NCBI GenBank assembly: GCA_965223505.1
Contig: CBDCWP010000013.1
Location: forward strand, 128,001 to 192,000
Length of the DNA stretch: 64,000 nt
Reading direction: 5' to 3'
From: Planctomycetota bacterium
Lineage (GTDB): Bacteria > Planctomycetota > PLA2 > JAEUHO01
How positions within the stretch are numbered: the stretch's first letter is position 1; the number at the start of each line of letters is the position of its first letter. This document shows positions 5,281 to 57,622 of this stretch, piece after piece. Below the pieces are notes generated by a model, which was given only the letters and a program-made list of their open reading frames with translations, was not told the origin of the DNA and searched no databases. A program made the translations under genes and the position numbers.

Positions 5281-5314
5281 GCTCAAAACGAGATAGACTC
5301 CTCTCATTTTGAGA
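5281..5314. promoter_or_regulatory. Tandem palindromic putative enhancer (UAS) pair, 21-bp period
   Basis: GCTCAAAACGAGA (5281) and TCTCATTTTGAGA (5302), between divergent sigma-54 motifs. Confidence 0.7.
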
Positions 5315-5478
5315 GGAGTACTTCGGTTGAAAGCTCGACGTATGTCCTCCTCTCTCTCGAGATTAAAAAAGCTTAAGAGAAAGCGGCGCGCCTGTGGGAT
5401 GTTTCCAACAGACGTTGAGGCCCATCTCGCCCGCGCATTAGCCGGGGGCATTAATATACATGGGGATCTCGGCGTTTT

Positions 5479-5492
5479 GGCATGTTCTTTGC
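5479..5492 (+). promoter_or_regulatory. sigma-54 promoter for AI-2E transporter
   Basis: TTGGCATGTTCTTTGCC. Confidence 0.75.
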
Positions 5493-5578
5493 CTCGCAGC
5501 ACAGCCAAACGGCGCCATTGACGCCCATCATCACACAAGGGGCGCCTGAAGCTCCCCAGTACGCTTCGGAGGGAAAAG

Positions 5579-6673
5579 ATGCCCGACTTGTTCACCCAGG
5601 GGCTCCTACGGCTCGCCTCGATTTTCATTATTCTATGGGGCATCCGAGCTGCTCAGCCCATCGCCGCGCCTCTCATCTTTGCATTATTCTTGATGGGTGT
5701 TTGTTGGCCCCTCTATCGATGGGTTCAGCGTCTGGCGCCGCGAGTTGTGGCTGCGGCGATTGCCCTGCTCGTCTGTTTGATCGCGCTTGGAGGGATCGGC
5801 GGCGGTCTGTACTACAGCGGCGTTCAGATCGCGGGCGATTCCCAAAAGATGGCGCAACTGATCTCTTTGGAGGCCCTGCAACTGCGCTCCTTGGCCGAGG
5901 GGCTGGGGGTGCCGATTCCGCCCCCAGAGAAGGCCGCGTCTGCCGTCGGGACTTTTCTCAAGTACCTATCCTCGCAGGCGCTTTCAGCCAGCACAGGGCT
6001 TTTTCTGGCGCTCACTTTTTTGATGTTGGGTTTGCTCGAAGCGCCAGCCTTTCGCACGAAGCTCGTCGGCAATCGCGCCGATAGCGCTCTGCTTCACAGT
6101 CTGTCGGAAATCGCTTCAGATTTTCAGCGATATATCGCCGCCCGCACGTTTTTGGGGTTGTTGACCGGCCTCCTGAGCGGGCTCGGGGCCTGGGCCATTG
6201 GTCTCGACTATCCTTTTATCTGGGGTCTGACGAATTTTCTCCTCAACTATTTTCCAACCATTGGCTCGATTCTTGGCGTCATCCCATCCACGCTGTATGC
6301 GCTGGCCCAATCAGATGGCGGCGCAGGGTTGGCCCTGGCCGCGCTCGGCGTCATCGGCGGCGTCCAGCTCATCATGGGAAATTACATCGACCCGCTCGTG
6401 CAAGGGCGCGTCTTGTCGCTATCGCCTCTCATTGTGCTGTTATCAGTGGCGTTTTGGGGGTGGATGTGGGGTGTGGCGGGCGCGTTTATCGGCGTGCCGA
6501 TCACGATTGCGATCGTTTTGATCTGTCGACGTTTTGCGTCCACCCGGTGGATTGCCACGCTTCTGGCTGGGACCAACGATGACAACGCCACTCCGATTGT
6601 TTGCGATCTGCGCGTCACAAGGCGACAGCAAGAGGGCGATGTCCCGACATCAACAACGCTCGGCAATAAATAG
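5579..6673 (+). CDS. AI-2E (PerM/TqsA) family transporter
   Basis: Multi-TM; WGLTNFLLNYFPTIG, GNYIDP...LSPL...FWGWMWGVAGAFIGVP. Confidence 0.9.
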   Translation: MPDLFTQGLLRLASIFIILWGIRAAQPIAAPLIFALFLMGVCWPLYRWVQRLAPRVVAAAIALLVCLIALGGIGGGLYYSGVQIAGDSQKMAQLISLEALQLRSLAEGLGVPIPPPEKAASAVGTFLKYLSSQALSASTGLFLALTFLMLGLLEAPAFRTKLVGNRADSALLHSLSEIASDFQRYIAARTFLGLLTGLLSGLGAWAIGLDYPFIWGLTNFLLNYFPTIGSILGVIPSTLYALAQSDGGAGLALAALGVIGGVQLIMGNYIDPLVQGRVLSLSPLIVLLSVAFWGWMWGVAGAFIGVPITIAIVLICRRFASTRWIATLLAGTNDDNATPIVCDLRVTRRQQEGDVPTSTTLGNK

Positions 6674-8266
6674 AGAGGCGCAAGGCGAAGATGGGCCTTG
6701 GTGATAAACCAAGACAGCGTCCTCGATGTCCCGGTCAGCGACTGTAAACCGGTCGCGCTGTCTCAAGTATTCGCCCCAGGTTTCCACGATAAACGATTCG
6801 AGATAACGGCCAGTTTCAGCCGCATCAGCAAAAACGCCCCAGCGCAGGGCGCCGTCCCGGCGGCGTATCCTGCCGAGCTGACGGATGGCAAGAAAAAAAG
6901 CCTCACATTGATCTGGGTCAATCTGATAGTCGATGGTGACCAAAACCGGGCCTTTTTCATCATCGGGCTCTTCCTCTATGTCCGGCGTAGGCCAATGTCG
7001 GGAGGGGCTCGTGTCATAGTCGCTGCTGGTGACGAGTGGACAACGATGCGTCGCAGCCAGAGCAACCAGCGCGCCGCCCGCTGCGACCCACAGGGTTGCC
7101 CCAATGCCGATCCGGTCGGCCACCGCCCCCCAGAGGGCGCTGCCGCCGGCCATGCCCCCAAAAAACACGAGGATATAGGCGGCCAGGGCGCGGCCTCGCA
7201 CCCAGGTGGGCAAGGCCGCTTGGGCGCTGGCGCTGAACGACGTAAGCAAGATGAGCCAGGCGCTTCCGCCTAACAGCATGATCAGACAAAACAGGACTGA
7301 CGCCTTGACCAGCCCAGCGAGCGCGAGAACGAGGGCGAAGATCATGGTCGCTGTTGCAACGAGATGTTCCCGCGTGAAATGGGGTTGTAAACGCGGCAGG
7401 ACGAATGTGCTGAGGGACGCGCCAAGACCAAAGCAACCGAGCACGAGTCCATAGCCAGATGCGCCTTGCCCCAGGTGTTCGCGCACAACGAGCGGCAGCA
7501 TTGCCCAGAGGGCGCTGCCGCAGAGCATGAAGGCGCCGGCGCGCGCCATGACAGACCACATAGCCGGGGCGTGCCAAACGTAGCGGAGCCCAGCTTGCAT
7601 CGCGCCCCAAAAGTGTTCTGCCGGCAAGCGCGTTCGGCGTTGGGAACGCCGCCAGGTATAGAACACAACGATGACGCCCAAAAACGAGACGGCATTAAGT
7701 AGGAAGAGAACAGCCGGCCCCAATGCGGCCATGAGAAATCCGCCCAAAACGGGACCGAGCGCCCGCGCGACATTGACCGACGCCGTTTTGAGAGAAATGG
7801 CCCCTGACAGGTCTTCGCGCGGCACGAGTTCCGCCGTAACGGCGCGGCGAGCAGGCGAGTTGAAGGCCAGCCCAAGGCTCATCACCCCCGTTAAGCTCAG
7901 CAAGAGCCACGGGGTCATCACGCCGAGCCATACGGCGACGCCATAGCCCAGAGCGGTGAGACAGACCCAACTTTGCGTGATTAAGAGCAAGCGGCGTCGA
8001 TCGATCACGTCGGCCAACACGCCGGCCGGCAGCGCAAAGAGCACCATGGGGAGACTGGTCGCCACTTGCACCAGCGCCACCATGACAGGAGAAGGGGACA
8101 ACGTGGTCATCAGCCACGCCCCGCCGACGTCCTGCATCCAATTGCCAATATTGGATATGAAGGTTGCAATCCACAGCCACCGAAATACGGCGTGGCGCAG
8201 CGGACGCCAGGCGCTTGCCTGACGCTGCTCGTCTCCCTCGCCATGAGGCTTCGAACACGGCGCCAT
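6650..8266 (-). CDS. MFS transporter (MFS_3 type) with soluble C-terminal extension
   Basis: FRWLWIATFISNIGNWMQ, AGVLADVIDRRRLL, C-terminal GPVLVTIDY...RIRRRDGALRWG; RBS GGAGG before 8266. Confidence 0.9.
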   Translation of the reverse strand: MAPCSKPHGEGDEQRQASAWRPLRHAVFRWLWIATFISNIGNWMQDVGGAWLMTTLSPSPVMVALVQVATSLPMVLFALPAGVLADVIDRRRLLLITQSWVCLTALGYGVAVWLGVMTPWLLLSLTGVMSLGLAFNSPARRAVTAELVPREDLSGAISLKTASVNVARALGPVLGGFLMAALGPAVLFLLNAVSFLGVIVVFYTWRRSQRRTRLPAEHFWGAMQAGLRYVWHAPAMWSVMARAGAFMLCGSALWAMLPLVVREHLGQGASGYGLVLGCFGLGASLSTFVLPRLQPHFTREHLVATATMIFALVLALAGLVKASVLFCLIMLLGGSAWLILLTSFSASAQAALPTWVRGRALAAYILVFFGGMAGGSALWGAVADRIGIGATLWVAAGGALVALAATHRCPLVTSSDYDTSPSRHWPTPDIEEEPDDEKGPVLVTIDYQIDPDQCEAFFLAIRQLGRIRRRDGALRWGVFADAAETGRYLESFIVETWGEYLRQRDRFTVADRDIEDAVLVYHQGPSSPCASLFIAERC

Positions 8267-8307
8267 GATTTCCTCCTTTGCAAGACTCCAGTAGCCAAGG
8301 GGAGCTA

Positions 8308-8320
8308 TCCCATTTTGAGA
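8308..8320. promoter_or_regulatory. Single copy of the TCTCA-N3-TGAGA-like palindrome
   Basis: TCCCATTTTGAGA upstream of the MFS gene. Confidence 0.45.
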
Positions 8321-8900: not shown

Positions 8901-8906
8901 CCATGA

Positions 8907-11410: not shown

Positions 11411-11444
11411 TCTCGTTTTGCAATCATACCCTCTCATTTTGAGA
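11411..11444. promoter_or_regulatory. Tandem palindromic putative UAS pair, 21-bp period
   Basis: TCTCGTTTTGCAA (11411) and TCTCATTTTGAGA (11432). Confidence 0.72.
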
Positions 11445-11702: not shown

Positions 11703-11970
11703 TATCTACCGAGATAAACCGTTATCCCTCGATCAACTCCAAGCTGAAAGGACGCCACTTATGCAGACCTCTCATCTAAGAGCGAGTGGCGCGGGCATGG
11801 CGCTGAGCGCCCCACCCAGATCCGTGTATCATCGTAATTTATGGGGTTGCAGGCGACCTTGCCCGTCGCACGTTGATCCCTGCGCTTTGCGCCCTTTACC
11901 GCTGCCAGAGCCTGTCCGCGCCATTCGCCGTTATTGGAGGGGCGAGGCGCTCAGATTGGGTTTGTGCCAA

Positions 11971-12114
11971 GCTTGGTCGATCGTCGATCCACTGATCGCC
12001 AACTGGGAAGCGTTGCCGCCTCCCGACTTGCCGAACTATGCGGCGGGCTCTTGGGGCCCAGAGGCGGCCAACTCGCTGCTTGAGCAAGATGGACGAACAT
12101 GGTATATGGCCTAA
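11971..12114 (+). pseudogene. zwf: Glucose-6-phosphate dehydrogenase C-terminal remnant
   Basis: AWSIVDPLIANW...PNYAAGSWGPEAANSLLEQDGRTW matches the G6PD C-terminus; rest of gene absent. Confidence 0.8.
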
Positions 12115-15788: not shown

Positions 15789-15822
15789 TCTCAAAACAAA
15801 ACTCAGCTCTCTCATTATGAGA
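15789..15822. promoter_or_regulatory. Tandem palindromic putative UAS pair, 21-bp period
   Basis: TCTCAAAACAAAA (15789) and TCTCATTATGAGA (15810). Confidence 0.68.
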
Positions 15823-15865: not shown

Positions 15866-16594
15866 ATGCTGCGAAGTATTAAAGCCTTACACAGCTACGC
15901 CATCGAGGCGACGGATGGAGACCTCGGCGTGGTCTACGCGTTTTATTTTGATGATCTGTCCTGGACGATCCGCTACGTGGTCGTGGACACTGGGGCCTGG
16001 TTGCCCGGGCGCCGCGTTTTGATCTCGCCGACTGTCGTCGGGGAGCCGCGCTGGGAGATGCGGCAACTGCCGGTGAATCTCACCCAGGAGCAGGTTAAAA
16101 ATAGTCCGGATATGGATACGGACCAACCCGTTTCGCGCCAACATCAAATGGCGTTGCACGACTATTACGCCTGGCCGATGTACTGGACAGTGGCGCCCAT
16201 CGGCCCAGGGGCGGTGGCGATGCCGCCGGAGTTGGCGGAGGAGTACGCCTCGGAAACCGGCGATCCCCACCTGCGCAGCACCCAGGAAGTGATCGACTAT
16301 TACATCCATGCGAGCGATGGCGATCTTGGCCATGTGGAGGATTTCATTGTCGACGATGACGACTGGACGATTCGCTATATGGTCGTTGATACGCGCAACT
16401 GGCTGCCTGGCAAAAAAGTGCTGGTCGCGCCGGAATGGATTACGGAGGTGAATTGGGGCGAGTCAAAAGTGTATGTCAATCTGACCCAAGACGCGATCAA
16501 AGACAGCCCGGAATATGATCCGACCGAAACGGTGAATCGCTGGTATGAAGAACGCCTTTACGATTTTTACGGCCGGCCCAAGTATTGGAGCTAA
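15866..16594 (+). CDS. Tandem PRC-barrel domain protein
   Basis: Two repeats of I-x-A-x-DGDLG-x-V...DD-x2-WTIRY-x-VVDT-x2-WLPG-x2-VL...VNLT-x3-(V/I)K-x-SP. Confidence 0.92.
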   Translation: MLRSIKALHSYAIEATDGDLGVVYAFYFDDLSWTIRYVVVDTGAWLPGRRVLISPTVVGEPRWEMRQLPVNLTQEQVKNSPDMDTDQPVSRQHQMALHDYYAWPMYWTVAPIGPGAVAMPPELAEEYASETGDPHLRSTQEVIDYYIHASDGDLGHVEDFIVDDDDWTIRYMVVDTRNWLPGKKVLVAPEWITEVNWGESKVYVNLTQDAIKDSPEYDPTETVNRWYEERLYDFYGRPKYWS

Positions 16595-18112: not shown

Positions 18113-18126
18113 GCAAAATCCGTGCC
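18113..18126 (-). promoter_or_regulatory. sigma-54 promoter for aldehyde dehydrogenase
   Basis: Minus strand ATGGCACGGATTTTGCC. Confidence 0.85.
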
Positions 18127-18199
18127 ATGTCATGCGATGCCTGCCGTGCAATAACGCATCCCATCTCGGGGCGGCCTTGTCGCCTGTCGGCGGCGCGAT

Positions 18200-18213
18200 G
18201 GCATAAGGCTTGC
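18200..18213 (+). promoter_or_regulatory. sigma-54 promoter for transglutaminase operon
   Basis: ATGGCATAAGGCTTGCA. Confidence 0.8.
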
Positions 18214-22666: not shown

Positions 22667-23954
22667 ATGAACGATAATCGCGCCACCATCGTCGCTTCTG
22701 ATTATTTAGAGCAAAACGCCGAGGCGCTTGTCACCAGTTGGATTGAGTGGGTCAGAGGGCGAGTGCAGACGACCGTTATCAATGCGTTGCCGCACCGCGC
22801 GCTTCGAAATCACGTGCCGCCCGTGTTGCGGAGCTTGGCGAAATTTCTGCGCAATCCAATCGAACTCGCGCGCCAGGACCTCTGCAACCATTTGCGCCTA
22901 CACGGCCAGATACGCCGCGATCAAGGCTATTCGCTCGAAGAGGTCTTAGCTGAGTTTGAAGGCCTCGCCGATGTGGTGACGCGCGGCGTGAGCCAAGCGA
23001 TTCAGGAACATGCGAGCGACGCCGAATCTCACGATGTGCTCGAAGTCGCCAACCGGCTGGCGTCAGGCCTGCGCTCTGTCAGTTACATTGCAATGGGAAC
23101 CTATATTAGAGCCGATCAAGACAGAGAGCAATTGATGGCTGCAAGCCTTGAAGAGTTTTCTCGCGCCATCGCCCATGAGCTACGCAATCCTCTCAACACG
23201 CTAACTTTAAACCTGCAAGTCCTTCAAGAAGAATTGGCTGATCACGAAGACCTGGTGCACTTATATCGAAGCGATGGATGTGGCTGTTAATCGGTCGACG
23301 TATCTGCTCGACACTATTCGCATCTTGACGATTGCCGAAAGCGCCCGAGCAGGACAACGCTTAGTCACTTTAGAAGAAGCTCTCAATCGCATTCAGAAGG
23401 AGTTCAATGACGAAATTTTTCATTTAGGGCTGGAGTTTCGAGTCGAGTCGCCTCTCCCCGAGGTGAGCATGGAGGCAACCGTCCTGTATCTCGTGTTAGT
23501 CAATCTTGTTGGAAACTCGATCAAGTATTGTGATTGCGACAAAAGCGAGAGATGGGTTGCCGTTAGCGCCACAATCATTGAGGAGGAAAATGATTCGGGT
23601 TTCTGTGAAATCCAAGTTGAAGATAATGGCCTTGGCATTGGAGAGGAATATCTGTCACGGGTTTTCCAAAAAGGGTTTCGAGCCCACCCAGAGCACGCCC
23701 AGGGCACTGGGTCGGGGCTTTTCATCGTCCAACAAGCGCTCAATTCCCGAGGGGCAAGCATCTCTATCGAAAGCCATGAAGGCGAAGGCACAGCGGTAAA
23801 GGTGCGACTGCGTTGTCTCCACCCGGAAGCCGCGGTCTTGTCTGCCGATCAATTCCGTGTCGAAAGCCTCATGGGAGAGTTTATCTGGAATGAGCTAACC
23901 GCTGCCCCGGGGCTTCCGGATAATGAGAGACAAACAGAGGCCGAAGAGAGTTAG
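22667..23954 (+). pseudogene. Sensor histidine kinase (RsbRD_N-like globin + HisKA + HATPase), frameshifted near 23262
   Basis: ORF1 has HG-x2-R-x2-QGYSLEEV and IAHELRNPL; ORF2 has NLVGNSIKY, DNGLGI, GTGSGL; frames join at HL|IEAMDVAV. Confidence 0.8.
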
Positions 23955-25906: not shown

Positions 25907-25940
25907 TGCCATTTTGAAACATCTTTGCATCATTTTGAGA
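25907..25940. promoter_or_regulatory. Tandem palindromic putative UAS pair, 21-bp period
   Basis: TGCCATTTTGAAA (25907) and CATCATTTTGAGA (25928). Confidence 0.65.
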
Positions 25941-26180: not shown

Positions 26181-26327
26181 ATGAAATGCGCTTGCCAACG
26201 TCAATGTATGTGCGAGGTAACCCCTGCTCAGAGTCTTGAACGAAACGGACACCTGTATTGCAGTGAAGCTTGCGCCAATGGCCACACCCGAGGAGAAGGT
26301 TGCGGTCACAGCGACTGTCGTTGTTAG
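26181..26327 (+). CDS. smtA: Bacterial metallothionein (SmtA/BmtA family), 48 aa (not in ORF track)
   Basis: MKCACQRQCMCEVTPAQSLERNGHLYCSEACANGHTRGEGCGHSDCRC; KCAC, YCSEACA-x-GH and GCGH-x2-C-x-C motifs; RBS AAGGA. Confidence 0.93.
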   Translation: MKCACQRQCMCEVTPAQSLERNGHLYCSEACANGHTRGEGCGHSDCRC

Positions 26328-27006: not shown

Positions 27007-27180
27007 TCAATATTTCAAGATGACATACAAAGCGTGGACAATTCCTGGAATAAAGCCAAATAGAGTAAGCAAGATATTGAGCCAAAAGTGACCTTTGAAG
27101 CCTACTTCAAAAAAAACGCCTAAGGGAGGCAACAAAATCGCAAACACGATTTTGATCGGGTCGGTAATGGTAACAGCCAT
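27007..27180 (-). CDS. yqaE: YqaE/Pmp3 family membrane proteolipid, 57 aa (not in ORF track)
   Basis: AILLPPLGVFFEVG-x3-HFWLNILLTLFGFIPGIVHALYVI; RBS AGGAG. Confidence 0.95.
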   Translation of the reverse strand: MAVTITDPIKIVFAILLPPLGVFFEVGFKGHFWLNILLTLFGFIPGIVHALYVILKY

Positions 27181-27256
27181 GCGCATCTCCTGTACTCAAG
27201 ATAAGGGAATAGTAAAGGCTTTACAGATTTACTCCGTCTTGCCTTATGATCAAGGA

Positions 27257-27331: not shown

Positions 27332-27365
27332 TCTCAAAATAAAAACGAAGTCTCTCAAATTAATA
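27332..27365. promoter_or_regulatory. Tandem putative UAS pair, 21-bp period
   Basis: TCTCAAAATAAAA (27332) and TCTCAAATTAATA (27353). Confidence 0.62.
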
Positions 27366-28707: not shown

Positions 28708-29799
28708 GTGATCGCCACACGGATGTCTACATGCGCCGCGGCGTCAAGCCCACTGGGAAAAGGATTAATATTGTTACGTCTTTGGGGGTTACGTCTTTGG
28801 GGGTTGCGCCTTTGGGGCCGATGGCCCGGTTTATGGATAGGACTATGGCTAGCGGGCTGTCGCGGGCCTCAATCGGCTTTGGCGCCAGCTGGACGCGCGG
28901 CTGAGCGCATCGCCGATCTCTTTTGGGCGATGACGGCTGGGGCAGCCGTCATCTGGATCGTGGTGGTGAGCCTGGCCATTTACGTCATGCGCGCTCGCCC
29001 CGAGTCGCATGGCCAACGTTTTGCGCCATGGCTCATTATTGGCGGCGGCGTCGTTTTGCCAACCCTGACGCTAGCGGCGCTGCTCGCCTACGGTTTGGCG
29101 ATGATGCCGGACCTCCTGGCGCCGCCGTCGGGAGAACATGTCAAGATTGCGGTTTCGGGTGAGCAGTGGTGGTGGCGTGTGCGCTATTTGCCGCCTAGCG
29201 GCGACATGGGCGATCCTATCGAACTCGCTAATGAAGTGCGGCTCCCCGTCGGAACGCCGGTGATGTTTGAAGTGGAGAGCCCCGATGTGGTGCACGCCTT
29301 CTGGATTCCGTCGCTCGGCGGCAAAATTGATATGATTCCGGGGCGCGTCAATCGGCTGACCCTGGAGCCCACCCGAACCGGGGTGTTTCGCGGCGTCTGC
29401 GCCGAGTATTGCGGCGCGTCTCACGCCTTGATGGCCCTGGATGTCGTGGTTTTAGAAAAAGAGGCGTACACCGCTTGGCTGCAGCGCCAGCGAGAACCAG
29501 CGCAGGCGCCTGCGCAAGCTGAGACGCGGCGTGGACAAGAGGTGTTTATCGCCAATGGCTGCGGCGCTTGTCATACCATTCGCGGCGCTTCGGCCGACGG
29601 CGTGCTGGGTCCAGACCTCACCCATGTCGGCAGCCGCTTGAGCCTTGGCGCCGGCACGTTGCCCAACGACATCGAATCGCTCGTACAGTGGCTGGCCCAC
29701 ACGGACACCGTGAAACCGGGTGCGCATATGCCGGCCTTTGGCATGCTGCCGCCCGAGGACCTGAGGGCCCTAGCCGTTTATCTGGACGGACTGAAATGA
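28708..29799 (+). CDS. coxB: Cytochrome c oxidase subunit II with fused cytochrome c
   Basis: QWWW, DVVHAFWIPSLGGKIDMIPG, CuA CAEYCGASHALM, heme CGACH; lipobox LAGC. Confidence 0.95.
   Translation: MIATRMSTCAAASSPLGKGLILLRLWGLRLWGLRLWGRWPGLWIGLWLAGCRGPQSALAPAGRAAERIADLFWAMTAGAAVIWIVVVSLAIYVMRARPESHGQRFAPWLIIGGGVVLPTLTLAALLAYGLAMMPDLLAPPSGEHVKIAVSGEQWWWRVRYLPPSGDMGDPIELANEVRLPVGTPVMFEVESPDVVHAFWIPSLGGKIDMIPGRVNRLTLEPTRTGVFRGVCAEYCGASHALMALDVVVLEKEAYTAWLQRQREPAQAPAQAETRRGQEVFIANGCGACHTIRGASADGVLGPDLTHVGSRLSLGAGTLPNDIESLVQWLAHTDTVKPGAHMPAFGMLPPEDLRALAVYLDGLK
28774..28818 (+). repeat. 15-bp tandem repeat x3 encoding LRLWG in the coxB leader
   Basis: TTACGTCTTTGGGGG x2 plus TTGCGCCTTTGGGGC. Confidence 0.85.
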
Positions 29800-32327: not shown

Positions 32328-32337
32328 GGATGGCGCG

Positions 32338-33341: not shown

Positions 33342-33343
33342 GC

Positions 33344-34453
33344 ATGAAACGCCGGTGGATCAAAATAGGGGGAGCGCTCGCGGCGCTTGGCGTGGGCGGA
33401 TTCCTTTTTGCGGCGGCAGGGCTAGCGCCGATCAAAGCCAGCTCCGGCCACTGGCCGATCACGGCATGGTTGTTAAAATTCACCATGCGCCGCTCGCTTG
33501 CCACCCAATCATTAGGCCTCAAGCCGCCCAAACTGGATACCCCCGATCTCGTGCTACAAGGCGCGGGGCACTACGAAACGGGCTGCCGTTCTTGTCACGG
33601 CAGCCCCGGCGAGCCTGTGCCGCGGGTGTCGCAGCAGATGACGCCACATCCGCCCGGCCTGTCATCGCCAGCCACCGAGTTGACCCCCGACGAACTCTTT
33701 TACGTCGTCAAGCACGGCGTCAAATTTACCGGTATGCCGGCTTGGCCAACACAGCAGCGTGATGATGAGGTCTGGGCGATGGTGGCCTTTCTCCTCAAAT
33801 TTCCACAACTCGATGCGGCGTCGTATCGACAGCTCATTCACGGCGAAGAGCCAGCAGCCGTTGAAGCCATCTCGCTACTCGCCTTATCACCCGTGCGCAA
33901 TGTCGCCGAGGCCGCCGCGATCCATTGCGATCGATGCCATAGCCGAGGCGAGGGCATCTTTCCTCGGCTTGGCGGCCAGCGATCGGCGTACCTCGTCGCC
34001 GCCTTGCAAGCCTATGCCCGAGGTGATCGCCATAGCGGCGTGATGTCATTGGTGGCGGCCGCGTTGCGACCTGAGGACATGCAAAAATTCGCAGATTATT
34101 ACAGTCGTTTGGAGGCGCCGGTTCCCGCGCCCCGCGCTAGCTCTGAGGCGTCATCCATTGAGCGAGGCAAAGCCATTGCTCATCGAGGCATTCCTCGCCA
34201 GCGCGTGCCCTCTTGCGTCGACTGCCATGGCCCTGGCGACATGCCCCGCAACCCGGTTTTTCCCATTCTCGCGGGACAGTATACTGACTACCTTGTCTCA
34301 CAACTTAAGCTCTTTCAATCGCAACACCGCGGCGGCTCCCCCTACGCCCATCTGATGCGCCCCATGGCGGCTTGGCTGACTTCGGCGGATATGCGCGACG
34401 TGGCTCTATACTATGCCTCGCTCACGACCGCCTCGGATCATTTGAAGCCTTAA
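33344..34453 (+). CDS. Triheme c-type cytochrome (c4/c553-like)
   Basis: CRSCH, CDRCH, CVDCH; GVKFTGMPAW; P-x-LAGQ. Confidence 0.9.
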   Translation: MKRRWIKIGGALAALGVGGFLFAAAGLAPIKASSGHWPITAWLLKFTMRRSLATQSLGLKPPKLDTPDLVLQGAGHYETGCRSCHGSPGEPVPRVSQQMTPHPPGLSSPATELTPDELFYVVKHGVKFTGMPAWPTQQRDDEVWAMVAFLLKFPQLDAASYRQLIHGEEPAAVEAISLLALSPVRNVAEAAAIHCDRCHSRGEGIFPRLGGQRSAYLVAALQAYARGDRHSGVMSLVAAALRPEDMQKFADYYSRLEAPVPAPRASSEASSIERGKAIAHRGIPRQRVPSCVDCHGPGDMPRNPVFPILAGQYTDYLVSQLKLFQSQHRGGSPYAHLMRPMAAWLTSADMRDVALYYASLTTASDHLKP

Positions 34454-36582: not shown

Positions 36583-36617
36583 TCTCAAATTGAGCCAGTA
36601 TATTAGTCAAAATAAAA
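36583..36617. promoter_or_regulatory. Putative UAS pair (22-bp period)
   Basis: TCTCAAATTGAGC (36583) and AGTCAAAATAAAA (36605). Confidence 0.58.
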
Positions 36618-36731: not shown

Positions 36732-37790
36732 TCATGGTTCCCGATGGCCTCGCTCAATTTTCTCTTCGACTTCACGTCGCTCATCTGCTTTGAGACTGGG
36801 TTCCTCTTGCTGCGTTTCGGCTTGTAAACTCAAATTGAGAGACACGTAGACAGGAAAGTGATCGGAGCCAAAGGCCGGAAGACGTTTCAAGGCAATGAGA
36901 CCAAAGTCATCGGAGTGAAAAACGTGGTCGAGCGGCCAGCGCAGAAGGGGCATTTTAGCGCTAAAACTATTGTACAGACCTCGACCTATGCGGGGATCGA
37001 GCATTTTGCTGGTCTTTTGAAATAGCGCCGTGGTGCGCGACCACGCCACATCATTGAGATCGCCCGCTACAATCACCGGTTGCGTTAACGACCGCGCTTC
37101 GCGCCCGACCATAAGCAATTCCGCGTCGCGTTTTGTCGTCTTCTCACTCTCACTTGGAGCAGGCGGTTTTGGGTGCAGCGCATAGAGCCAAATATTCCGA
37201 CCAGATGCTAGGGTGAGTTGAGTTCGAATAGATGGAATCTCATTGTCGAGAAGAAAGCGCACCTCCGGCGCGATGAGGGGCAATCGTGAGTAAAGGAGCA
37301 TGCCGTACGTATTCGGCAATGGTTTCTTGACCGTATTCGCGTAATCTGTCTCTAATGGCGCGAGTTGTTTCTCCCACCAGGCGTCCGCTTCTAAGATCAG
37401 CACCACATCGGGCGATGCGTCGCGTACGATACGGAGAAACTTGGCGGCCTGCCGATTCTCCATCAACACATTTGAGACCACAATGGCGATACGGTCATGA
37501 CGTGAACCGTCGCTGGTCATGACGACTTCTGAAGCCGCTAAGGGAGTATAGGGATAGATGGTATACACTTGATAAACGAGACAAACGATGAGGACGCCAA
37601 CCGTGCAATACTCAAGTGGGAACGCAAGAGGGCGCATGAACCAAAAAGCGATGGCGACGCCGCATCCCAAGCCTAAGATTTGCAGGCGAGGAAAATCAAA
37701 GGCGCGAATCCACCAGGCGTCGGCCCGTATTACCGGAATCACTGTGGCAAGGATGAGCAACCAGGCTAAGACAGAGAGTGCAATTTTCAT
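36732..37790 (-). CDS. Endonuclease/exonuclease/phosphatase family protein with N-terminal TM
   Basis: WWIRAFDFPRLQ, NVLMEN, AGDLNDVAWS, PLDHVF, GSDHFP. Confidence 0.92.
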   Translation of the reverse strand: MKIALSVLAWLLILATVIPVIRADAWWIRAFDFPRLQILGLGCGVAIAFWFMRPLAFPLEYCTVGVLIVCLVYQVYTIYPYTPLAASEVVMTSDGSRHDRIAIVVSNVLMENRQAAKFLRIVRDASPDVVLILEADAWWEKQLAPLETDYANTVKKPLPNTYGMLLYSRLPLIAPEVRFLLDNEIPSIRTQLTLASGRNIWLYALHPKPPAPSESEKTTKRDAELLMVGREARSLTQPVIVAGDLNDVAWSRTTALFQKTSKMLDPRIGRGLYNSFSAKMPLLRWPLDHVFHSDDFGLIALKRLPAFGSDHFPVYVSLNLSLQAETQQEEPSLKADERREVEEKIERGHREP

Positions 37791-37862: not shown

Positions 37863-39221
37863 TTAATGGAGCTGATATTCTTTGAGTTTGCGATACAACG
37901 TCGCAGGAGCAATGGCGAGCTGTCGCGCCGTAGCCTGACGATTTCCAGCATGGTGTCGCAGGGCTTGAAGAATGGCCTCCCGTTCCACTGTCGCGAGGTC
38001 TGAATGAACAGGGAGCATAAGATAGTCCTCTTCATCCATCAGATGACCGAGGCGTTGATGGCTCAAGTCCAAGTCGTTAATCGTAATGGATGTTGACTGG
38101 CAAAGCACAACAGCTCGTTCGATCACATTTTCCAACTCGCGAACATTTCCTGGCCAGTCGTACGACTTCATCGCTTCTAATGCTTCAGATTGAATAGACG
38201 CGACTTCTTTGTGGTTCATCTCGGCGTATCGACGGATAAAATGAGAGGCTAATAAAGGAATGTCGGAGCGCCGCTCTCGCAAGGCCGGCAGGTGTATGGC
38301 AATGACATTGAGGCGGTAATAAAGATCCTCGCGAAAACGCCGCATCCTCACCTCTTCCGCGAGGTTTTTATTGGTGGCCGTAATCAGTCGCACATCCGCA
38401 CGGAGGTCTTGCCTGCCGCCAAGCCGCCTAAACGCGCCGTCTTGTAGAACACGCAACAGTTTAGCCTGGATCTCCATGGGCATGTCGCCAACTTCATCTA
38501 AAAACAACGTGCCCCCATCAGCCAACTCAAAATGTCCGGGTTTGCGTTCGTAAGCCCCAGTAAACGCGCCTTTCTCGTAGCCAAACAATTCCGCCTCTAA
38601 TAAGGCCGGAGGTAAGGCGGCAGCGTTAAGGACGATAAAAGGTTGCGATGCGCGGGTGCTCAAGCGATGCGCCATCGTAGCGATCACTTCTTTACCAGTG
38701 CCGCTTTCGCCAGTCACGAGCAGCGTCGCTCGCGAGGGCGCGACGTGACTAACCAGCTCGCGGATGTGACGCCAAGCTTGGCTGGAACCGATCACCTCGG
38801 ACTGAGAAAATTGGTCGCGAACTTGTTTCTTGAGTATCCGATTTTCAACGATGAGCGCCTGCACGGCGCTCGCTTTTTGTAACGTGATGACGGTGCGTTC
38901 GCGGCTCATCGGTTTAACCAAATAGTCAAAAGCGCCTTCTTTCATGGCTTCAACCGCAACCTCGATATCCTGGCCGCCAGACATGATAATGACGCAGATG
39001 CCCGGATGCTCAGCCTTCACCTGCCGAAGCAGGTCGAGGCCACTCATGCCACCCATCTTGACATCGGTCAAGAGCAGATCGATATCATGCTGCCCAAGCA
39101 GTGATAAGGCCTCTTCGCCGGATGTCGTCGTGGTGACAGTATAACCCTCCTGAGTCAACATAACCTCTAGCGCTCTCAGCGTGCTCGCGACATCGTCAAC
39201 GACCAAGACGTGCGGCATCAT
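37863..39221 (-). CDS. sigma-54-dependent response regulator (NtrC/AtoC-type bEBP: REC-AAA+-Fis HTH)
   Basis: VVDD/TDVKM REC; GESGTGKE, intact GAFTGA, LFLDEVG, WPGNVRELEN; HTH IAPATLYRKL. Confidence 0.96.
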   Translation of the reverse strand: MMPHVLVVDDVASTLRALEVMLTQEGYTVTTTTSGEEALSLLGQHDIDLLLTDVKMGGMSGLDLLRQVKAEHPGICVIIMSGGQDIEVAVEAMKEGAFDYLVKPMSRERTVITLQKASAVQALIVENRILKKQVRDQFSQSEVIGSSQAWRHIRELVSHVAPSRATLLVTGESGTGKEVIATMAHRLSTRASQPFIVLNAAALPPALLEAELFGYEKGAFTGAYERKPGHFELADGGTLFLDEVGDMPMEIQAKLLRVLQDGAFRRLGGRQDLRADVRLITATNKNLAEEVRMRRFREDLYYRLNVIAIHLPALRERRSDIPLLASHFIRRYAEMNHKEVASIQSEALEAMKSYDWPGNVRELENVIERAVVLCQSTSITINDLDLSHQRLGHLMDEEDYLMLPVHSDLATVEREAILQALRHHAGNRQATARQLAIAPATLYRKLKEYQLH

Positions 39222-39308
39222 TTTTGTCCCCTGGTAAGACGAAACGTTTGGCGGGTAGTCGACTGCGCCTGCGCCCGCGAAAACGCTGAGGCGCGGCTCG
39301 CAGGACCG

Positions 39309-39476
39309 TCAAATTCTTCGACGCGTGGCATTCATGATCAACGAGATCACGAAAATCACTAAAAAGATAAAAAATAGAATCTTAGCAATGCCGGCCGCCG
39401 CCCCGGCCACGCCGCCAAACCCAAGCACGGCGGCGATTAGCGCGATTACCAAAAACACTAACGCCCAGCTCAGCAT
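39309..39476 (-). CDS. ytjA: DUF1328 (UPF0391/YtjA) small membrane protein, 55 aa (not in ORF track)
   Basis: [55 protein letters not shown]. Confidence 0.95.
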
Positions 39477-39590
39477 TTTCTCTCTCCTCCTACGTAATTT
39501 TCTAAAGAGTGGCAGAGTGAATGGCCCACCAAAAGATATTTTTCATGCTTTCCGGGAGCGGCCCGGCTTCATGGCGACTCTCAAAGGTTA

Positions 39591-39616
39591 GCGTCACGTC
39601 TGTGCAGACGTGACGC
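39591..39616. other. Hairpin between csbD and DUF1328
   Basis: GCGTCACGTCTG-TG-CAGACGTGACGC. Confidence 0.6.
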
Positions 39617-39623
39617 GTATCGA

Positions 39624-39839
39624 TTAAGGCGCCGTTCGCTCGTAGTCGTTGAGACGGCGCGTCACCTCAGCTCTAGCCTCTTCCTTCGTCCACCCATAGC
39701 GCTCTTGCATTTTGCCGACGAGTTTGTCCTGATCGCCGTCAATTTGGTCGAGTTCGTCATCGGTTAACTCCCCCCACCACTTTTTTGCTTCGCCTCGAAT
39801 CTGTTTCCATTTTCCCTTTAATACATCTGTGTTCATCAC
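39624..39839 (-). CDS. csbD: CsbD family stress protein (YjbJ-like)
   Basis: N-x-D-x2-KGKWKQ-x-RG-x2-K-x2-WGELTDD-x-LD-x-I-x-G...G-x2-QERYG-x2-KE-x-A. Confidence 0.95.
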   Translation of the reverse strand: MMNTDVLKGKWKQIRGEAKKWWGELTDDELDQIDGDQDKLVGKMQERYGWTKEEARAEVTRRLNDYERTAP

Positions 39840-40035: not shown

Positions 40036-40068
40036 TTTAATTTTGAGAATATTACTTTCATTTTAAGA
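40036..40068. promoter_or_regulatory. Putative UAS pair (20-bp period)
   Basis: TTTAATTTTGAGA (40036) and TTTCATTTTAAGA (40056). Confidence 0.58.
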
Positions 40069-41023: not shown

Positions 41024-42151
41024 ATGTCATCCACATCGCTGAGTCAAGGATCGACGGGTAGGACATGGCCAGGCAATGCCGCAAACCAATCTGGCGATCA
41101 ACGCCAGGGGGCGGAAGTTGCTGGACGATTATCCGAACTGGCGGCGGGTGTCGCCATTTTGGGACCGGACGCGACGGTGTCTTCCTGGAGCGCCTCAGCT
41201 GCGGCGATGACGGGCTATACCCTTGATCAGGTGCGTCAAATCGGGCTCGCCGCCATCTTTGAACCGGCAGAGGTGATGCGGCATATGCTATACAAAGGCG
41301 GCGCTGGAGTCCCAACCCCTAGTGAGTATCTCCAACTGCGACACGGGGATGGCCATCTGATCCCGGTGCTGGCCCAGTGCGCTCCCCAGCGCCGCCAGCG
41401 ACAACACCCGTGTCCTTTAGCCTTGGTGTTTCGCCCCATTGATGTCCATCTTGAAAACTTGCGCCAAGATGAACACTGGATGGTCATGGGGCGGTTTTCC
41501 AGCTCGTTGTCACACGACATTCGCAATCAACTCAACGCGGTGATGTTGCACACGGATGTCCTAAGCGACGCCTTGGACGACGCGCCCTCTGAGACGCGCG
41601 TCGCCATGACCGAATCCGTGGAGGATATCCGGCGCGAAATCAACCGCCTACACGAGCTGCTCGATCAAATGCTCTCTCTGGGCCGTTTGACCCGGCTAAA
41701 TCTTGAGCCGGTGATGCTCGCCACATTGATAGAGGCATTAGGAGAAGAAATCGAACCGCTGCTTTCGTCACACGGCATTCGGCTGCATCAGCGCCTGAGC
41801 GCAGAGCTTGGCGAGGTTGGCTTACACGCCAATACCTTTCGCTATCTATGGCTCAATCTGGTTCGCAACGCCATTGAGGCGATGCCGGACGGGGGCGAAC
41901 TCACCATCTGCGCTGAGTGCTCGGACGATGAAGCGCGTTTGACCATCACCGATACGGGCGCAGGCGTTGCCATGGACCAAATCCCCTTGCTCTTTGCCCC
42001 GTTTCAGACCACAAAACCAGATGGCGCTGGCCTTGGGCTTTACATCGCGCAGGAAATTGCCGAGGCTCACCAGGGGCGTATTGAAGTCTCTAATGAAGGA
42101 GGCTTGGGCGCGTCTGTCACCGTGACGCTGCCAATATTGAAACCGGTCTAG
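41024..42151 (+). CDS. Cytoplasmic PAS-domain sensor histidine kinase
   Basis: PAS-like W-x3-A-x2-MTGY; HDIRNQL; NLVRNAIEA, DTGAG, PFQTTK, GAGLGL. Confidence 0.9.
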   Translation: MSSTSLSQGSTGRTWPGNAANQSGDQRQGAEVAGRLSELAAGVAILGPDATVSSWSASAAAMTGYTLDQVRQIGLAAIFEPAEVMRHMLYKGGAGVPTPSEYLQLRHGDGHLIPVLAQCAPQRRQRQHPCPLALVFRPIDVHLENLRQDEHWMVMGRFSSSLSHDIRNQLNAVMLHTDVLSDALDDAPSETRVAMTESVEDIRREINRLHELLDQMLSLGRLTRLNLEPVMLATLIEALGEEIEPLLSSHGIRLHQRLSAELGEVGLHANTFRYLWLNLVRNAIEAMPDGGELTICAECSDDEARLTITDTGAGVAMDQIPLLFAPFQTTKPDGAGLGLYIAQEIAEAHQGRIEVSNEGGLGASVTVTLPILKPV

Positions 42152-43181: not shown

Positions 43182-43195
43182 GCAAATGTTATGCC
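43182..43195 (-). promoter_or_regulatory. sigma-54 promoter for MscS
   Basis: Minus strand ATGGCATAACATTTGCG. Confidence 0.8.
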
Positions 43196-43253
43196 ATGTG
43201 AAGACCACCCAAGGCGCGCATCAAACCCATTTTGGCCTGTTTAGCCCGCACGT

Positions 43254-43267
43254 GGCACAAATTTTGC
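43254..43267 (+). promoter_or_regulatory. sigma-54 promoter for coiled-coil lipoprotein
   Basis: GTGGCACAAATTTTGCT. Confidence 0.87.
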
Positions 43268-45373: not shown

Positions 45374-45772
45374 TTAGACGTTAGATGGATAAACTTCAAA
45401 CCCGCCTATGGATTGCCTGATCCAATCCAACAAGCCGCGCCATTCATCGAGATCAAATGGCTTCTTCATGGTCTCTTTAGCGCCGAGGTCATGAGCCAAG
45501 GACAGCTTTTCGCGGTTTGCTGACATCGCGATGATGATGGCTGCTGGGTCATCACGGTGAATGGCTTTGATTAACTCCAAGCCGTTCATTTCCGGCATAT
45601 AAATATCCGATATCACAGCATCGATTGCTAACTCTTGATAGCGTTGAAGCCCCTCGCGACCATTTTGCGCCTCGACCACTACGCAATCTAAGCTCTCCAA
45701 AAATGTACGTAGGAGCTCTCGGATCTCGGCTTCATCTTCAACGAGAAGAATCTTTACTTGTGTGGGACGCAT
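45374..45772 (-). CDS. Single-domain response regulator
   Basis: ILLVEDE, SDIYMPEMNG, AMSA, KPF. Confidence 0.9.
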   Translation of the reverse strand: MRPTQVKILLVEDEAEIRELLRTFLESLDCVVVEAQNGREGLQRYQELAIDAVISDIYMPEMNGLELIKAIHRDDPAAIIIAMSANREKLSLAHDLGAKETMKKPFDLDEWRGLLDWIRQSIGGFEVYPSNV

Positions 45773-45996
45773 CGTATTTCCCCCATCTCTTGACATCGAT
45801 CGTAATGACCTGGCTCGGAGCCGACTCAGGCGTTGCGGAGAAAACATGTCGCCATCCGGTTGAGCGCTACTCAACTGCTAGTTACAGCGTATCGACCAAA
45901 GCCGATGGCGCCAGATGCTTGGGCGGTTCAGCGCCCACAGCTAGGCTCAATGCCAAGGCGAGCCTACGCATTTCAATCTGTCTCAGGCAGGAAAAC

Positions 45997-46155: not shown

Positions 46156-46189
46156 TCTCGTTTTAAAAATCACCCCTCTCAAATTGAGA
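46156..46189. promoter_or_regulatory. Tandem palindromic putative UAS pair, 21-bp period
   Basis: TCTCGTTTTAAAA (46156) and TCTCAAATTGAGA (46177). Confidence 0.72.
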
Positions 46190-49466: not shown

Positions 49467-49500
49467 TTTCATTTTGAAATACCTAGGTTTTATATTGAGA
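49467..49500. promoter_or_regulatory. Tandem putative UAS pair, 21-bp period
   Basis: TTTCATTTTGAAA (49467) and TTTTATATTGAGA (49488). Confidence 0.65.
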
Positions 49501-49570: not shown

Positions 49571-49651
49571 CCATTCCATGACAAGATGACTCATAGGGTT
49601 GGTTTGTTGTCGAGGCAACCGACCGCGTCACAATTAATAAGGAGGTTCACC

Positions 49652-51160
49652 ATGGCGCAGGAAGATCAAAAGCTTACCACAGCGGCGGGGATACCCGTGC
49701 CGAATAATCAGGAATCCCTCACAGCGGGCCCACGCGGTCCCGTTCTCATGCAAGATTATCACCTCTTTGAAAAGTTGGCCCGCTTCAACCGGGAGCGCAT
49801 TCCGGAACGGGTGGTGCATGCCAAGGGCTATGGCGCCTATGGCGCGTTTACCGTGACGCAGGATATCACTCGCTACACGAGGGCCAATATCTTTGCAGAG
49901 GTAGGCAAAGCAACGGAATGCTTTTGCCGTTTCTCCACCGTTGGAGGAGAGGCGGGATCGGCGGATACGGCTCGCGACCCGCGCGGCTTCGCCATGAAGT
50001 TTTACACGGAGGAAGGCAACTGGGATCTGGCTGGCAATAACACGCCCATCTTTTTTGTGCGCGATCCGATAAAGTTCCCCGATTTCATCCACACGCAGAA
50101 ACGCGAACCTCGCTCGCACCTCAAGCCGAATTGGATGAAGTGGGATTTCTGGTCGCTGTCGCCGGAATCCCTGCACCAAGTTCTCATCCTCTTCAGCGAC
50201 CGCGGCACGCCGAAATCCGCTCGTTTTATGAATGGCTACGGTAGCCATACCTTTAGTTTCATCAACCACCAAGACGAGCGCTTCTGGGTGAAGTTCCATG
50301 TCAAGACGAGGCAAGGCATCGAGAATTTTACCGAGGCCGAAGCGATGCGAATGGCCGGTGAAGCGCCCGATTATTCCACTCGCGATTTGTTCGAAGCGAT
50401 CGAACGCGGCGACTATCCCCAATGGACGATGTACGTCCAGATCATGCCGGAAGAAGAGGCCGAGACCTATCGGATTCACCCCTTTGACCTGACCAAGGTG
50501 TGGTATCACAGCGATTACCCACTGATTGAAGTCGGCGTCATGGAGCTCAACCGCAATCCGGAGAACTATTTCGCCGAGGTGGAGCAAGCGGTGTTCGAGC
50601 CCAACAATGTTGTTCCCGGCATTGGTTTTTCTCCTGATAAAATGTTGCAAAATCGCGTCATTTCCTATCAGGACGCGCATCGCTATCGGCTCGGCGTCAA
50701 CTATGACCAAATACCTGTCAACCAGGCTAAGCACGCTAACGTGAATACCTATCATCGCGATGGCGTGATGCGTGTGGACGGCAATGATGGTCGGCAAGTA
50801 AATTACGAACCCAACAGCTTTGGGGGGCCAGCCGAAGCGCCGGAATACCGCGAACCGCCGCTGCGCATCGACGGGAACGCCGACCGCTACAACAGCTACC
50901 CGTGCGACGACGACGACTATTACGAGCAGCCAGGGCGGTTCTACCGCCAGGCGCTCGACGACACGGGGCGTCAGCATCTGGTGGAGAATCTCATAGGCAG
51001 CTTGCAAGATGTTCCTAACGAGATTCTGTTGCGGCAGCTCTATCACTTTCATAAGGCGGATGAGGAACTCGGCGAGCGCGTGGCGCAGGGACTTAAAGTC
51101 GCCATGGAGGAAGCCCTGAGCCGCGCTACGGCGGAAAACGGCGCGGCTGCGAAGCGCTAA
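49652..51160 (+). CDS. katA: Monofunctional heme catalase (small subunit)
   Basis: [27 protein letters not shown], proximal [22 protein letters not shown]. Confidence 0.96.
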
Positions 51161-56684: not shown

Positions 56685-56685
56685 C

Positions 56686-57393
56686 TTAATGGTCTCCTCT
56701 GGGCGAAATAGACTCGGGGGTCACGACATCTGAACTCGTTGCGCCAGGGGCGCTTGCAGGGGGCGTCATGGGAGGCGTTGTCGTCTGCGGCGTTGGGACA
56801 TGATTGCCTCTGGGCGAAATGGGCCGAGGCGTCACGACATCCGCACTCGTTGCGCCAGGGGCGCTTCGAGGCGGTGTAGGCTGTCCGGGATGCGAGTATG
56901 ACGCCTGCGTATGCGCAGAGGGCGTGTCGTGACGCTCGGCTGAACTTTTGAGAAATCGAGCAGCCATAAACCCCAGTAAAGCAGCGCTGCCAATAAAGGC
57001 GCCGGGTTGGTTGCGGGCAAAGCTTTCAACCTGTCCCATCAGCGCGCCCATATCGCGATCTTTTAGGGTCTGCGAGAACCGCTCGATCCCCTCCGCTGCT
57101 TGCTGCGTGTACTGCGCCATGGCGCTTTGATTCTGCGTCTGGAGTTCATCGGCCGTGCGGTGTAAAGCCGTTGCTAAACCATTGACCTGTGCGGCCACGG
57201 CGTCTTTTTGATCCTGAAATAGCGCCTCGCCTTGGGCTTTGGCTTCTTGGGTCAGCCGTTGGGCCTCGTGTTGGATGCGGTCGCCAATTTCTTGCGCTTT
57301 CGCTGTCGTCTCTGGGGCCCTTTGTTCAGCGGTGTTAACCGCCGATGTTGTGGTTGACAACGTTGGGTTTTGATAGGGTTGATGTTCACTCAT
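56686..57393 (-). CDS. Stress-associated hypothetical protein (first gene of the DUF3618 trio)
   Basis: VESFARNQPGAFIGSAALLGFMAARFLKSS; RBS GAGGAG. Confidence 0.82.
   Translation of the reverse strand: MSEHQPYQNPTLSTTTSAVNTAEQRAPETTAKAQEIGDRIQHEAQRLTQEAKAQGEALFQDQKDAVAAQVNGLATALHRTADELQTQNQSAMAQYTQQAAEGIERFSQTLKDRDMGALMGQVESFARNQPGAFIGSAALLGFMAARFLKSSAERHDTPSAHTQASYSHPGQPTPPRSAPGATSADVVTPRPISPRGNHVPTPQTTTPPMTPPASAPGATSSDVVTPESISPRGDH
56696..56866 (-). repeat. 60-bp direct repeat x2 (SAPGATS-x-DVVTP-x2-ISPRG)
   Basis: Copies at 56696-56755 and 56807-56866. Confidence 0.8.
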
Positions 57394-57489
57394 ACGTTTT
57401 TCTCCTCGCAAAAGTTTTTGTCCCCCTGACATCCATGCAGATTTCTAAAATATGACCATACAAGGATGAGGCGATTCTCTGCTCAATAA

Positions 57490-57503
57490 GCAAGTTCCAT
57501 GCC
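57490..57503 (-). promoter_or_regulatory. sigma-54 promoter for DUF3618 operon
   Basis: Minus strand CTGGCATGGAACTTGCT (same core as 27451). Confidence 0.83.
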
Positions 57504-57588
57504 AGCATTTAAAATCGCGCATTATGGCCTTTATATTCATATAGTCATGTTGTTACGAGTAAAACACTATCCCACTGAAGCGTATTTT

Positions 57589-57622
57589 TTTTGTTTTGAG
57601 AATAAAATCGTTCAATTCGAGA
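57589..57622. promoter_or_regulatory. Tandem putative UAS pair, 21-bp period
   Basis: TTTTGTTTTGAGA (57589) and GTTCAATTCGAGA (57610). Confidence 0.62.

Follow-up and report, generated by a model that had tools for sequence, protein, structure and literature searches.

A tandem palindrome in a low-GC planctomycete region as the probable activator site of a sigma-54 regulon

The DNA considered here is a stretch of 64,000 nucleotides from a Planctomycetota bacterium (assembly GCA_965223505.1, contig CBDCWP010000013.1, forward strand; G000:C13:128001-192000 in our numbering), referred to as the window. It carries a repeated 13-bp palindrome, TCTCA-N3-TGAGA, which typically comes as two copies whose starts are 21 bp apart, and this repeated, paired palindrome is real. 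We consider it quite likely that the tandem palindrome is the upstream activator site of two paralogous NtrC-type activators, designated EBP1 and EBP2. According to the mechanism that we propose, each 13-bp dyad would bind one HTH_8 dimer, and dyads spaced by 21 bp, or two helical turns, would place two dimers on one face of the DNA. Upon phosphorylation of their receiver domains by a presumed signalling input, the dimers would seed an AAA+ ring, which would loop to the sigma-54 holoenzyme about 100-200 bp away and open the promoter. One set of sites between divergent promoters could serve both. The predicted activators would in this way switch on about 20 sigma-54 promoters of stress-protection genes. 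Positions given below are those of the window unless they carry a contig label such as C13.

The palindrome was first described in an earlier note made from the letters of this DNA alone, and every 13-mer listed there (21/21) is present where it was placed. Perfect copies occur four times in the window against 0.04 expected, and copies with at most one mismatch seven times against 1.56 expected; not one of 100 shuffles got to four in the first case or to seven in the second. Counted by eye over the ten fixed positions, mismatches are absent at 5302, 11432, 15810 and 46177, a single one is found at 8308 and at 36583, and the remaining listed sites have two to four, the worst being 36605 with four. 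The spacer of the good copies consists of A/T only (W3), and the flanks lengthen the dyad to C-TCTCA-WWW-TGAGA-G. All five perfect palindromes of the 5.15-Mb genome are on contig C13 within 65 kb (133,302-198,182), and the region C13:128-200 kb also holds 9 of the 29 copies with at most one mismatch and 13 of the 19 matrix matches scoring at least 12 bits. Sites additional to the earlier list were found at 36828, 44089 and, weakly, 59419, as well as beyond the edge of the window (in window-equivalent numbering) at 68143, 68456/68477 (21 bp apart) and 70182.

The earlier note had made its motif depend on enrichment over an AT-rich intergenic background, and this enrichment holds. In 40 intergenic stretches (10.4 kb, 50.8% GC), defined by crude gene calls that left a few sites upstream of genes counted as "coding", there are 12 matches of at least 8 bits compared with a mean of 1.15 and a maximum of 4 in 200 dinucleotide-preserving shuffles of the same stretches. 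At 12 bits or more, the numbers are 8 and 0.22. An unbiased k-mer count, which made no use of the proposed motif, was performed on 4.1 kb of sequence located 20-250 bp upstream of 20 strict promoter motifs. Its top words were CTCTCAAA and TCTCAAA, and 7 of the 12 island copies of CTCTCAAA fall within this upstream set (16-fold). Another word of the k-mer list, AGATATC, was rejected as a second motif, as it shows no enrichment in the window (8 vs 4.5 expected). Two further approaches were abandoned: an expectation-maximization motif finder that settled on low-information motifs, in place of which k-mer enrichment and consensus tests were used, and an exact half-site spacing test, for which the counts were too sparse.

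Could the repeats simply lack any regulatory role, having been left behind by a short mobile or recombination element or having arisen by chance in AT-rich intergenic DNA? Intergenic DNA is indeed AT-richer than the rest of the window, and several copies are degenerate. However, the excess over dinucleotide shuffles of this very DNA is 10- to 50-fold, the register of 21 bp is exact, the similarity stops at the motif, and the motif recurs beside the same helix-turn-helix (HTH) class in other organisms. We therefore give this explanation hardly any credence. In a comparison of 14 intergenic regions, the longest alignments were 37 bp at 81% and 43 bp at 72%. Because this similarity is only motif-length, the sites have been kept independently and are not duplicated cassettes.

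The spacing of the paired sites was assessed with the consensus only, by considering pairs in which both 13-mers have at most three mismatches (at most five summed) and which are 14-40 bp apart. The window contains seven such pairs at 21 bp versus zero to two at each of the 26 other spacings, in line with the spacing originally proposed, and the remaining 5.08 Mb contain three pairs at 21 bp within a flat background of 0-6. With a matrix derived from the nine best sites only, a partner above 3 bits is found at exactly +/-21 bp for five of them, the background rate being 0.00086 per position; one site has its partner at +22 bp and three have none. Genome-wide, only seven pairs have members of at least 6 bits each at a distance of 16-32 bp. 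All seven are in the island, six of them spaced by 21 bp and one by 20 bp.

The second line of evidence is the link to sigma-54 promoters. The strict motif TGGCAY-N5-TTGC has 18 matches in the window against 0.58 expected, and 31 in the whole genome. Elements of this type stand before genes, and the genome encodes one rpoN, a Sigma54_DBD gene on contig C37, along with 33 matches to the sigma-54 activator domain, 23 of them strong (E below 1e-50). For nine of the ten pairs, the midpoint is located at -97 to -207 from at least one transcription start inferred from these elements. Seven pairs are flanked by divergent sigma-54 motifs, and the gaps between a site and the nearest motif are 54-163 bp, both as the earlier note had described. 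Upstream activator sites typically lie about 80-200 bp upstream of a -24/-12 promoter, where all pairs except 15789 are found. They also have the dyad symmetry suited to dimeric HTH proteins and often come in tandem, as do the 5-W3-5 palindromes with their seven 21-bp pairs. Both the motif link and the position thus support the assignment of these sites to sigma-54 promoters.

Positional data also bear on a related possibility, namely that the activators do bind the palindrome but that the main effect at some sites is repression or insulation, such as autorepression of EBP2 or a block of read-through, with the 21-bp rule reflecting cooperative occupancy only. There is a perfect single palindrome 81 bp before the start of EBP2 with no sigma-54 motif in between, and this site may mediate autorepression. 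Similarly, pair 15789 is inside a probable 5' leader. Yet nine of the ten pairs are at classical activating distances from sigma-54 motifs, and we find this reading very unlikely.

What protein might recognize the palindrome as an activator site? The earlier note pointed to the product of 37863-39221, EBP1, as an activator with an HTH, and this stands. EBP1 is a complete protein with a receiver domain (REC), an AAA+ domain and HTH_8 (Pfam Response_reg, Sigma54_activat, AAA_lid_14 and HTH_8), its translation contains GAFTGA and GESGTGKE, and its HTH class goes with the palindrome in unrelated metagenome contigs. In other words, EBP1 has the NtrC-type architecture of REC, AAA+ with GAFTGA, and HTH_8. 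Its HTH_8 is the only match to an HTH-type DNA-binding domain by Pfam in the larger open reading frames (ORFs) of the window; the only other promoter-recognition domains there are sigma-70 regions 2 and 4 in a sigma-70 family factor. EBP2 is a paralogue located outside the window (C13:196746-198101), 66% identical to EBP1 and with a near-identical HTH segment, the part common to both being RQLAIAPATLYRKLKEYQ. The peptide IAPATLYRK is encoded by just these two genes in the genome. In the surroundings of EBP2 (C13:196100-198200), a strict sigma-54 motif is likewise preceded by two sites spaced by 21 bp. EBP1 probably activates itself, because promoter 39948(-) has the 40036/40056 pair upstream and EBP1 follows the CsbD-like and DUF1328 genes in an operon predicted from gene order. 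The NCBIfam scores of EBP1 are under the cut-offs for ntrC (438.8/558.6), AtoC (430.1/714), ZraR (412.8/760) and LuxO (380.8/800), and EBP2 is likewise under every curated equivalog cut-off; because of this, both are filed as NtrC-type by architecture only. The solved chains nearest to EBP1 are Aquifex NtrC-family proteins. As a separate observation, the strongest palindrome-like sites outside the island, TATCAAAATGAGA and TCTCAACTTGAAT, are weak, 41 bp apart, and located about 1 kb downstream of another activator gene (G000:C8:92475-93703) with a related HTH, IGVATLYRR.

Further support for the pairing of activator and site comes from relatives of EBP1 in other organisms. A whole-protein scan of species genomes gave no orthologue above 49% identity among the matches listed, and 400 sampled Planctomycetota genomes gave none above 48%. 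In a large protein collection, 969 relatives reach E values of 1e-120 or lower. Among the best 120 listed, identity to EBP1 is 62-94%, one entry is labelled Candidatus Tectomicrobia, and the HTH tails share I[AG]PATLYRK. Metagenome contigs were scanned with the back-translated form of this peptide as the sole selection criterion, which yielded at least 120 loci, 80 of which had flanks and were analysed. Loci from the species-genome scan, with relatives of up to 49% identity, were retained as negative control; the control set amounted to 109 loci in total, 80 around other activators (1.2 Mb) and 29 around planctomycete activators (118 kb). The loci with the HTH peptide have 44 perfect palindromes in 512 kb versus 3 in the 1.2 Mb around other activators, a difference of about 34-fold, and the planctomycete controls have 1 in 118 kb. 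Neither a palindrome with an A/T spacer nor the HTH peptide occurs in any of the 109 control loci. A strong site is present in 14 of 46 HTH classes; when the count is restricted to the 21 classes for which 3 kb or more of sequence was available, it is present in 11. Moreover, the HTH and the motif occur together in activators with differing sensors: those with REC, those with XylR_N/V4R, and a Kdp-linked type whose single site precedes kdpA. In the studied genome a candidate cognate activator is encoded close to the sites, and in other genomes the site goes together with this DNA-binding domain. The related loci and the window also have in common BON/YtxH genes, an AI-2E transporter and a GAF hybrid kinase.

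The relatives are also informative about the distance between paired sites. Counting pairs with two strong members twice, we found 41 partners at 18 bp, 6 at 20 bp, 8 at 21 bp, 4 at 22 bp and 14 at 29-31 bp. The 20-22 and 29-31 bp spacings are near two and three helical turns, which does not apply to 18 bp. In the loci in which the activator gene was placed (L131, L174, L140), the 18-bp pair, judged by eye, precedes this gene in the one large class, and we therefore took it as one evolutionary case. The earlier suggestion that the spacing of 21 bp puts both sites on the same DNA face is thus a sound interpretation for this island but fails as a rule of the family, in which 18, 20-22 and 29-31 bp spacings and single sites are all found. 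A side observation concerns Kdp. In three related loci (L150, L163, L164), a response-regulator activator with the same recognition helix adjoins kdpABC. These three and L180, L190 and L199 all have the same helix, and in each a site of the TCTCATTTTGAAA type directly follows the activator gene. This arrangement suggests that Kdp may be under sigma-54 control in those organisms.

A number of observations speak against the palindrome being the site of these activators. In the window, several partner copies are weak, with 3-4 mismatches of 10, and two pairs, 36583/36605 and 57589/57610 (3+3 mismatches), fail the spacing tests on their own because of their degeneracy. Three strong sites are single, two of which (at 8308 and in front of EBP2) lack a promoter motif in the vicinity. 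Pair 15789/15810 is downstream of the nearest promoter, at +157 from 15622(+). Furthermore, there is no detectable site at four promoter regions, 13625(-), 15491(-)/15622(+), 18113(-)/18199(+) and 43182(-)/43253(+); given these regions and the two paralogous activators, the proposal of the earlier note that one activator controls the whole cluster was too wide. Of the 81 strong sites in the related loci, only 26 are accompanied by an outward sigma-54 match at 30-300 bp, a modest enrichment over random positions (190/1620, 11.7%). The 18-bp spacing of one class does not fit the same-face idea, and no strong site is seen in 10 of the 21 HTH classes represented by 3 kb or more. Finally, many of the metagenome loci are near-copies of one another, 41 of the 120 listed loci falling into one HTH class, and the effective sample is much smaller than the counts. 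This largest HTH class holds 55 of the 82 strong sites, but even upon its removal there are still 27 strong sites in 322 kb versus 6 in the 1.2-Mb control.

Some of these observations would agree with the palindrome being the operator of some other protein (for instance a repressor, a nucleoid-associated bending protein or a factor whose gene lies elsewhere) that happens to lie near sigma-54 promoters by coincidence, while the activators bind elsewhere or act from solution. These are the four promoter regions lacking a site, the isolated sites at 8308 and before EBP2, and the small fraction of sites near a promoter match in relatives. However, the site tracks the HTH peptide across contigs that differ in both gene content and sensor domains, the larger ORFs of the window reveal no HTH-type domain besides that of EBP1, and both the dyad form and the location, roughly -100 to -200, are as expected of activator sites. 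Consequently, we regard an unrelated operator as unlikely and favour the upstream activator site of EBP1 and EBP2. The sites, the promoter motifs and the relevant genes are listed in Table 1.

Table 1. Palindromic sites, sigma-54 promoter motifs and associated genes (window positions; midpoints relative to predicted transcription starts)
Feature	Position	Strand	Spacing and context
Tandem site, weak 5281 + perfect 5302	5281..5314		21 bp; between 5212(-) and 5478(+); midpoint -97.5, -206.5
Single site, 1 mismatch	8308..8320		No sigma-54 motif nearby
Tandem site, weak + perfect	11411..11444		21 bp; between 11286(-) and 11688(+, 1 mismatch); midpoint -153.5, -286.5
Tandem site, weak + perfect	15789..15822		21 bp; +157 from 15622(+), -326 from 15491(-); directly before PRC-barrel gene 15866-16594
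Back-to-back strict sigma-54 motifs 18113(-)/18199(+)	18113..18213		No detectable site
Tandem site, two degenerate copies	25907..25940		21 bp; between 25822(-) (DUF1206 gene) and 26005(+) (metallothionein 26181-26327); midpoint -113.5, -107.5
Tandem site	27332..27365		21 bp; between 27257(-) (Pmp3 gene 27007-27186) and 27450(+); midpoint -103.5, -127.5
Promoter 27450(+)			AI-2E transporter, then aa3-type oxidase genes
Strong site + very weak partner	36583..36617		22 bp; upstream of 36482(-) (PRC-barrel gene); midpoint -130
Single strong site, 1 mismatch	36828..36840		Inside 3' part of gene 36732-37790; 364 bp upstream of 36482(-) start
Predicted operon, promoter 39948(-)	37863..39839	-	CsbD-like 39624-39839, DUF1328 39309-39476, EBP1 37863-39221; from gene order only
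Tandem site	40036..40068		20 bp; between 39948(-) and 40161(+, 1 mismatch); midpoint -116, -135
Histidine kinase, HisKA + HATPase_c	41024..42151	+	Candidate EBP1 partner, by proximity only
Back-to-back strict sigma-54 motifs 43182(-) (MscS-type channel)/43253(+) (sll1863-family stress protein)	43182..43267		No detectable site
Tandem site, weak + perfect	46156..46189		21 bp; between 45997(-) (receiver-domain gene 45374-45874) and 46302(+); midpoint -187.5, -155.5
Tandem site	49467..49500		21 bp; upstream of 49556(+, 1 mismatch), then catalase gene 49586-51160; midpoint -98.5
Tandem site, weakest pair, 3 mismatches each	57589..57622		21 bp; between 57490(-) and 57703(+, 1 mismatch; DUF533 gene); midpoint -127.5, -123.5
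Weak site 59419			162 bp upstream, in region of sigma factor gene 59619-61157
Strict sigma-54 motif 59561 + 512-amino-acid RpoD/RpoS-like sigma-70 family gene 59619-61157	59561..61157	+	Motif 43 bases before gene
GAF hybrid histidine kinase with receiver domain	61249..63951	-	Similar kinase adjoins activator in related locus L131

Genes of the kind found behind the promoter motifs occur in RpoS, SigB or EcfG regulons elsewhere. They encode CsbD, DUF1328, three BON-domain proteins, DUF883-like, Pmp3, metallothionein, Usp and catalase, as well as two MscS-type channels, PRC-barrel proteins, DUF1206, DUF4112, DUF3618/holin-X proteins, an sll1863-family stress protein, AI-2E transporters and the aa3-type oxidase cluster. 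A TreS-like enzyme behind a promoter motif scores 642.6 bits, just under the cut-off of 678. The predicted regulon would thus comprise general-stress genes, including EBP1 itself and probably the sigma-70-family factor, with the stress function read from these gene families. In the related locus L157 (3780-5330), a 31-bp pair precedes a homologous sigma factor, 30% identical, which hints at a possible cascade from sigma-54 to a sigma-70-family factor.

Several features of the region are worth pointing out in their own right. The two back-to-back pairs of strict sigma-54 motifs at 18113-18213 and 43182-43267 are separated by only 71-86 bp, with no palindrome nearby. The aa3-type cytochrome oxidase cluster (28708-34453), downstream of the AI-2E transporter, includes COX2 with a cytochrome c domain, a long COX1 and an extra cytochrome c, and it may represent a stress-induced terminal oxidase. 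One histidine kinase is apparently split into two overlapping ORFs in different frames, RsbRD_N + HisKA at 22667-23290 and HATPase_c at 23274-23954; this could be due to a frameshift, a sequencing error or a broken gene. Behind 11688(+), an ORF of 117 amino acids (11761-12114) resembles the G6PD C-terminal domain only over about the last 45 positions of that domain and looks like a gene remnant.

The region also stands apart from the rest of the genome in composition. The GC content of the window is 55.3% compared with 67.4% for the 5.15-Mb genome. Along C13 it is about 68%, falls to 58-65% at ~68 kb and reaches ~55% between 128 and 200 kb, and the whole right part of the contig (68-267 kb) is at 55-65%. 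We found no sharp island border and no flanking tRNA: the GC change is gradual, and ARAGORN identified no ordinary tRNA on the contig. It did report one odd tRNA-like gene at C13:102042-102132, classed as of undetermined type with a four-letter anticodon string. The HTH pattern, present twice in this genome, is found in 0 of the 400 other sampled Planctomycetota genomes. Because of this absence and the low GC content, the data point to acquisition of the region from outside the phylum.

How does this system compare with known ones? At glnAp2, NtrC binds tandem dyads that are an integral number of helical turns apart and about 100-150 bp upstream of a -24/-12 promoter, and DctD, ZraR and AtoC follow the same scheme. 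In the NtrC-type mechanism, dyad-bound dimers seed an AAA+ ring that contacts sigma-54 by looping. The tandem-dyad layout and the proposed mechanism are the same here, whereas the sequence motif is different, EBP1 and EBP2 are under the model cut-offs, and many promoters, often divergent, are gathered in one island. In sequence, a close counterpart is the SypG enhancer of the Vibrio fischeri syp locus, TTCTCANNNTGMDWN (from Ray et al. 2013, as quoted in PMC10162802). Comparing the site motifs alone, as quoted there, the two agree in the left half (TCTCA), in a spacer of 3 bases and in the TG that comes after it, and in both systems one response-regulator activator would serve several sigma-54 promoters of one large gene cluster. 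In contrast to the quoted SypG motif, the right half here is the true mirror TGAGA, and the sites are 21-bp tandems; also, the regulon here consists of stress genes rather than the polysaccharide genes of SypG. The LuxO sites at qrr promoters, given as TTGCAWWWTGCAA in the same source (PMC10162802), resemble ours in the length of 13 bp, the 5-W3-5 dyad with an A/T spacer, two sites per promoter and an NtrC-type response regulator. As presented there, however, the LuxO half-site is TTGCA instead of TCTCA, and EBP1 is under the cut-off of the NCBIfam LuxO model (380.8 bits against 800). Within the same phylum, a 2025 survey predicted that MscS and UspA genes of Planctomycetia have sigma-54 promoters (PMC12316311). 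Like our analysis, it places such promoters before mechanosensitive-channel and universal-stress genes; unlike ours, the passages of the survey drawn on here deal with promoters only and name no activator site (PMC12316311). No paper on TCTCA-W3-TGAGA was found in the open library searched, and the text of the Desulfovibrio regulome paper has no TCTCA-type motif. In short, the mechanism would be the textbook one and the motif is new, the whole representing an unusually large and clean example of an ordinary gene switch.

It is tempting to go further and to view the island as a self-contained, horizontally acquired sigma-54 general stress response standing in for RpoS, SigB or EcfG. Such a system would be made up of two self-regulated activators, kinases, about 20 promoters, a downstream sigma-70-family factor and the single rpoN of the host. 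It would also define an undescribed specificity class of HTH_8, in which the PATLYRK helix reads TCTCA-W3-TGAGA and is used by activators with differing sensors in several soil lineages. This broader picture is speculative, and we would put it at somewhat less than an even chance. For an uncharacterised family of activators common in soil metagenomes, the narrower result provides a concrete predicted operator together with a predicted regulon of about 20 promoters. By linking one HTH peptide to one DNA word across differing sensor domains, it helps to predict enhancer sites from sequence. It further suggests that sigma-54 may drive the usual general-stress genes (CsbD, BON, Usp, catalase, trehalose synthase, MscS) in some bacteria, and that a low-GC island can house a regulon of this kind, with a type of activator seen in none of the 400 other sampled genomes of the phylum.

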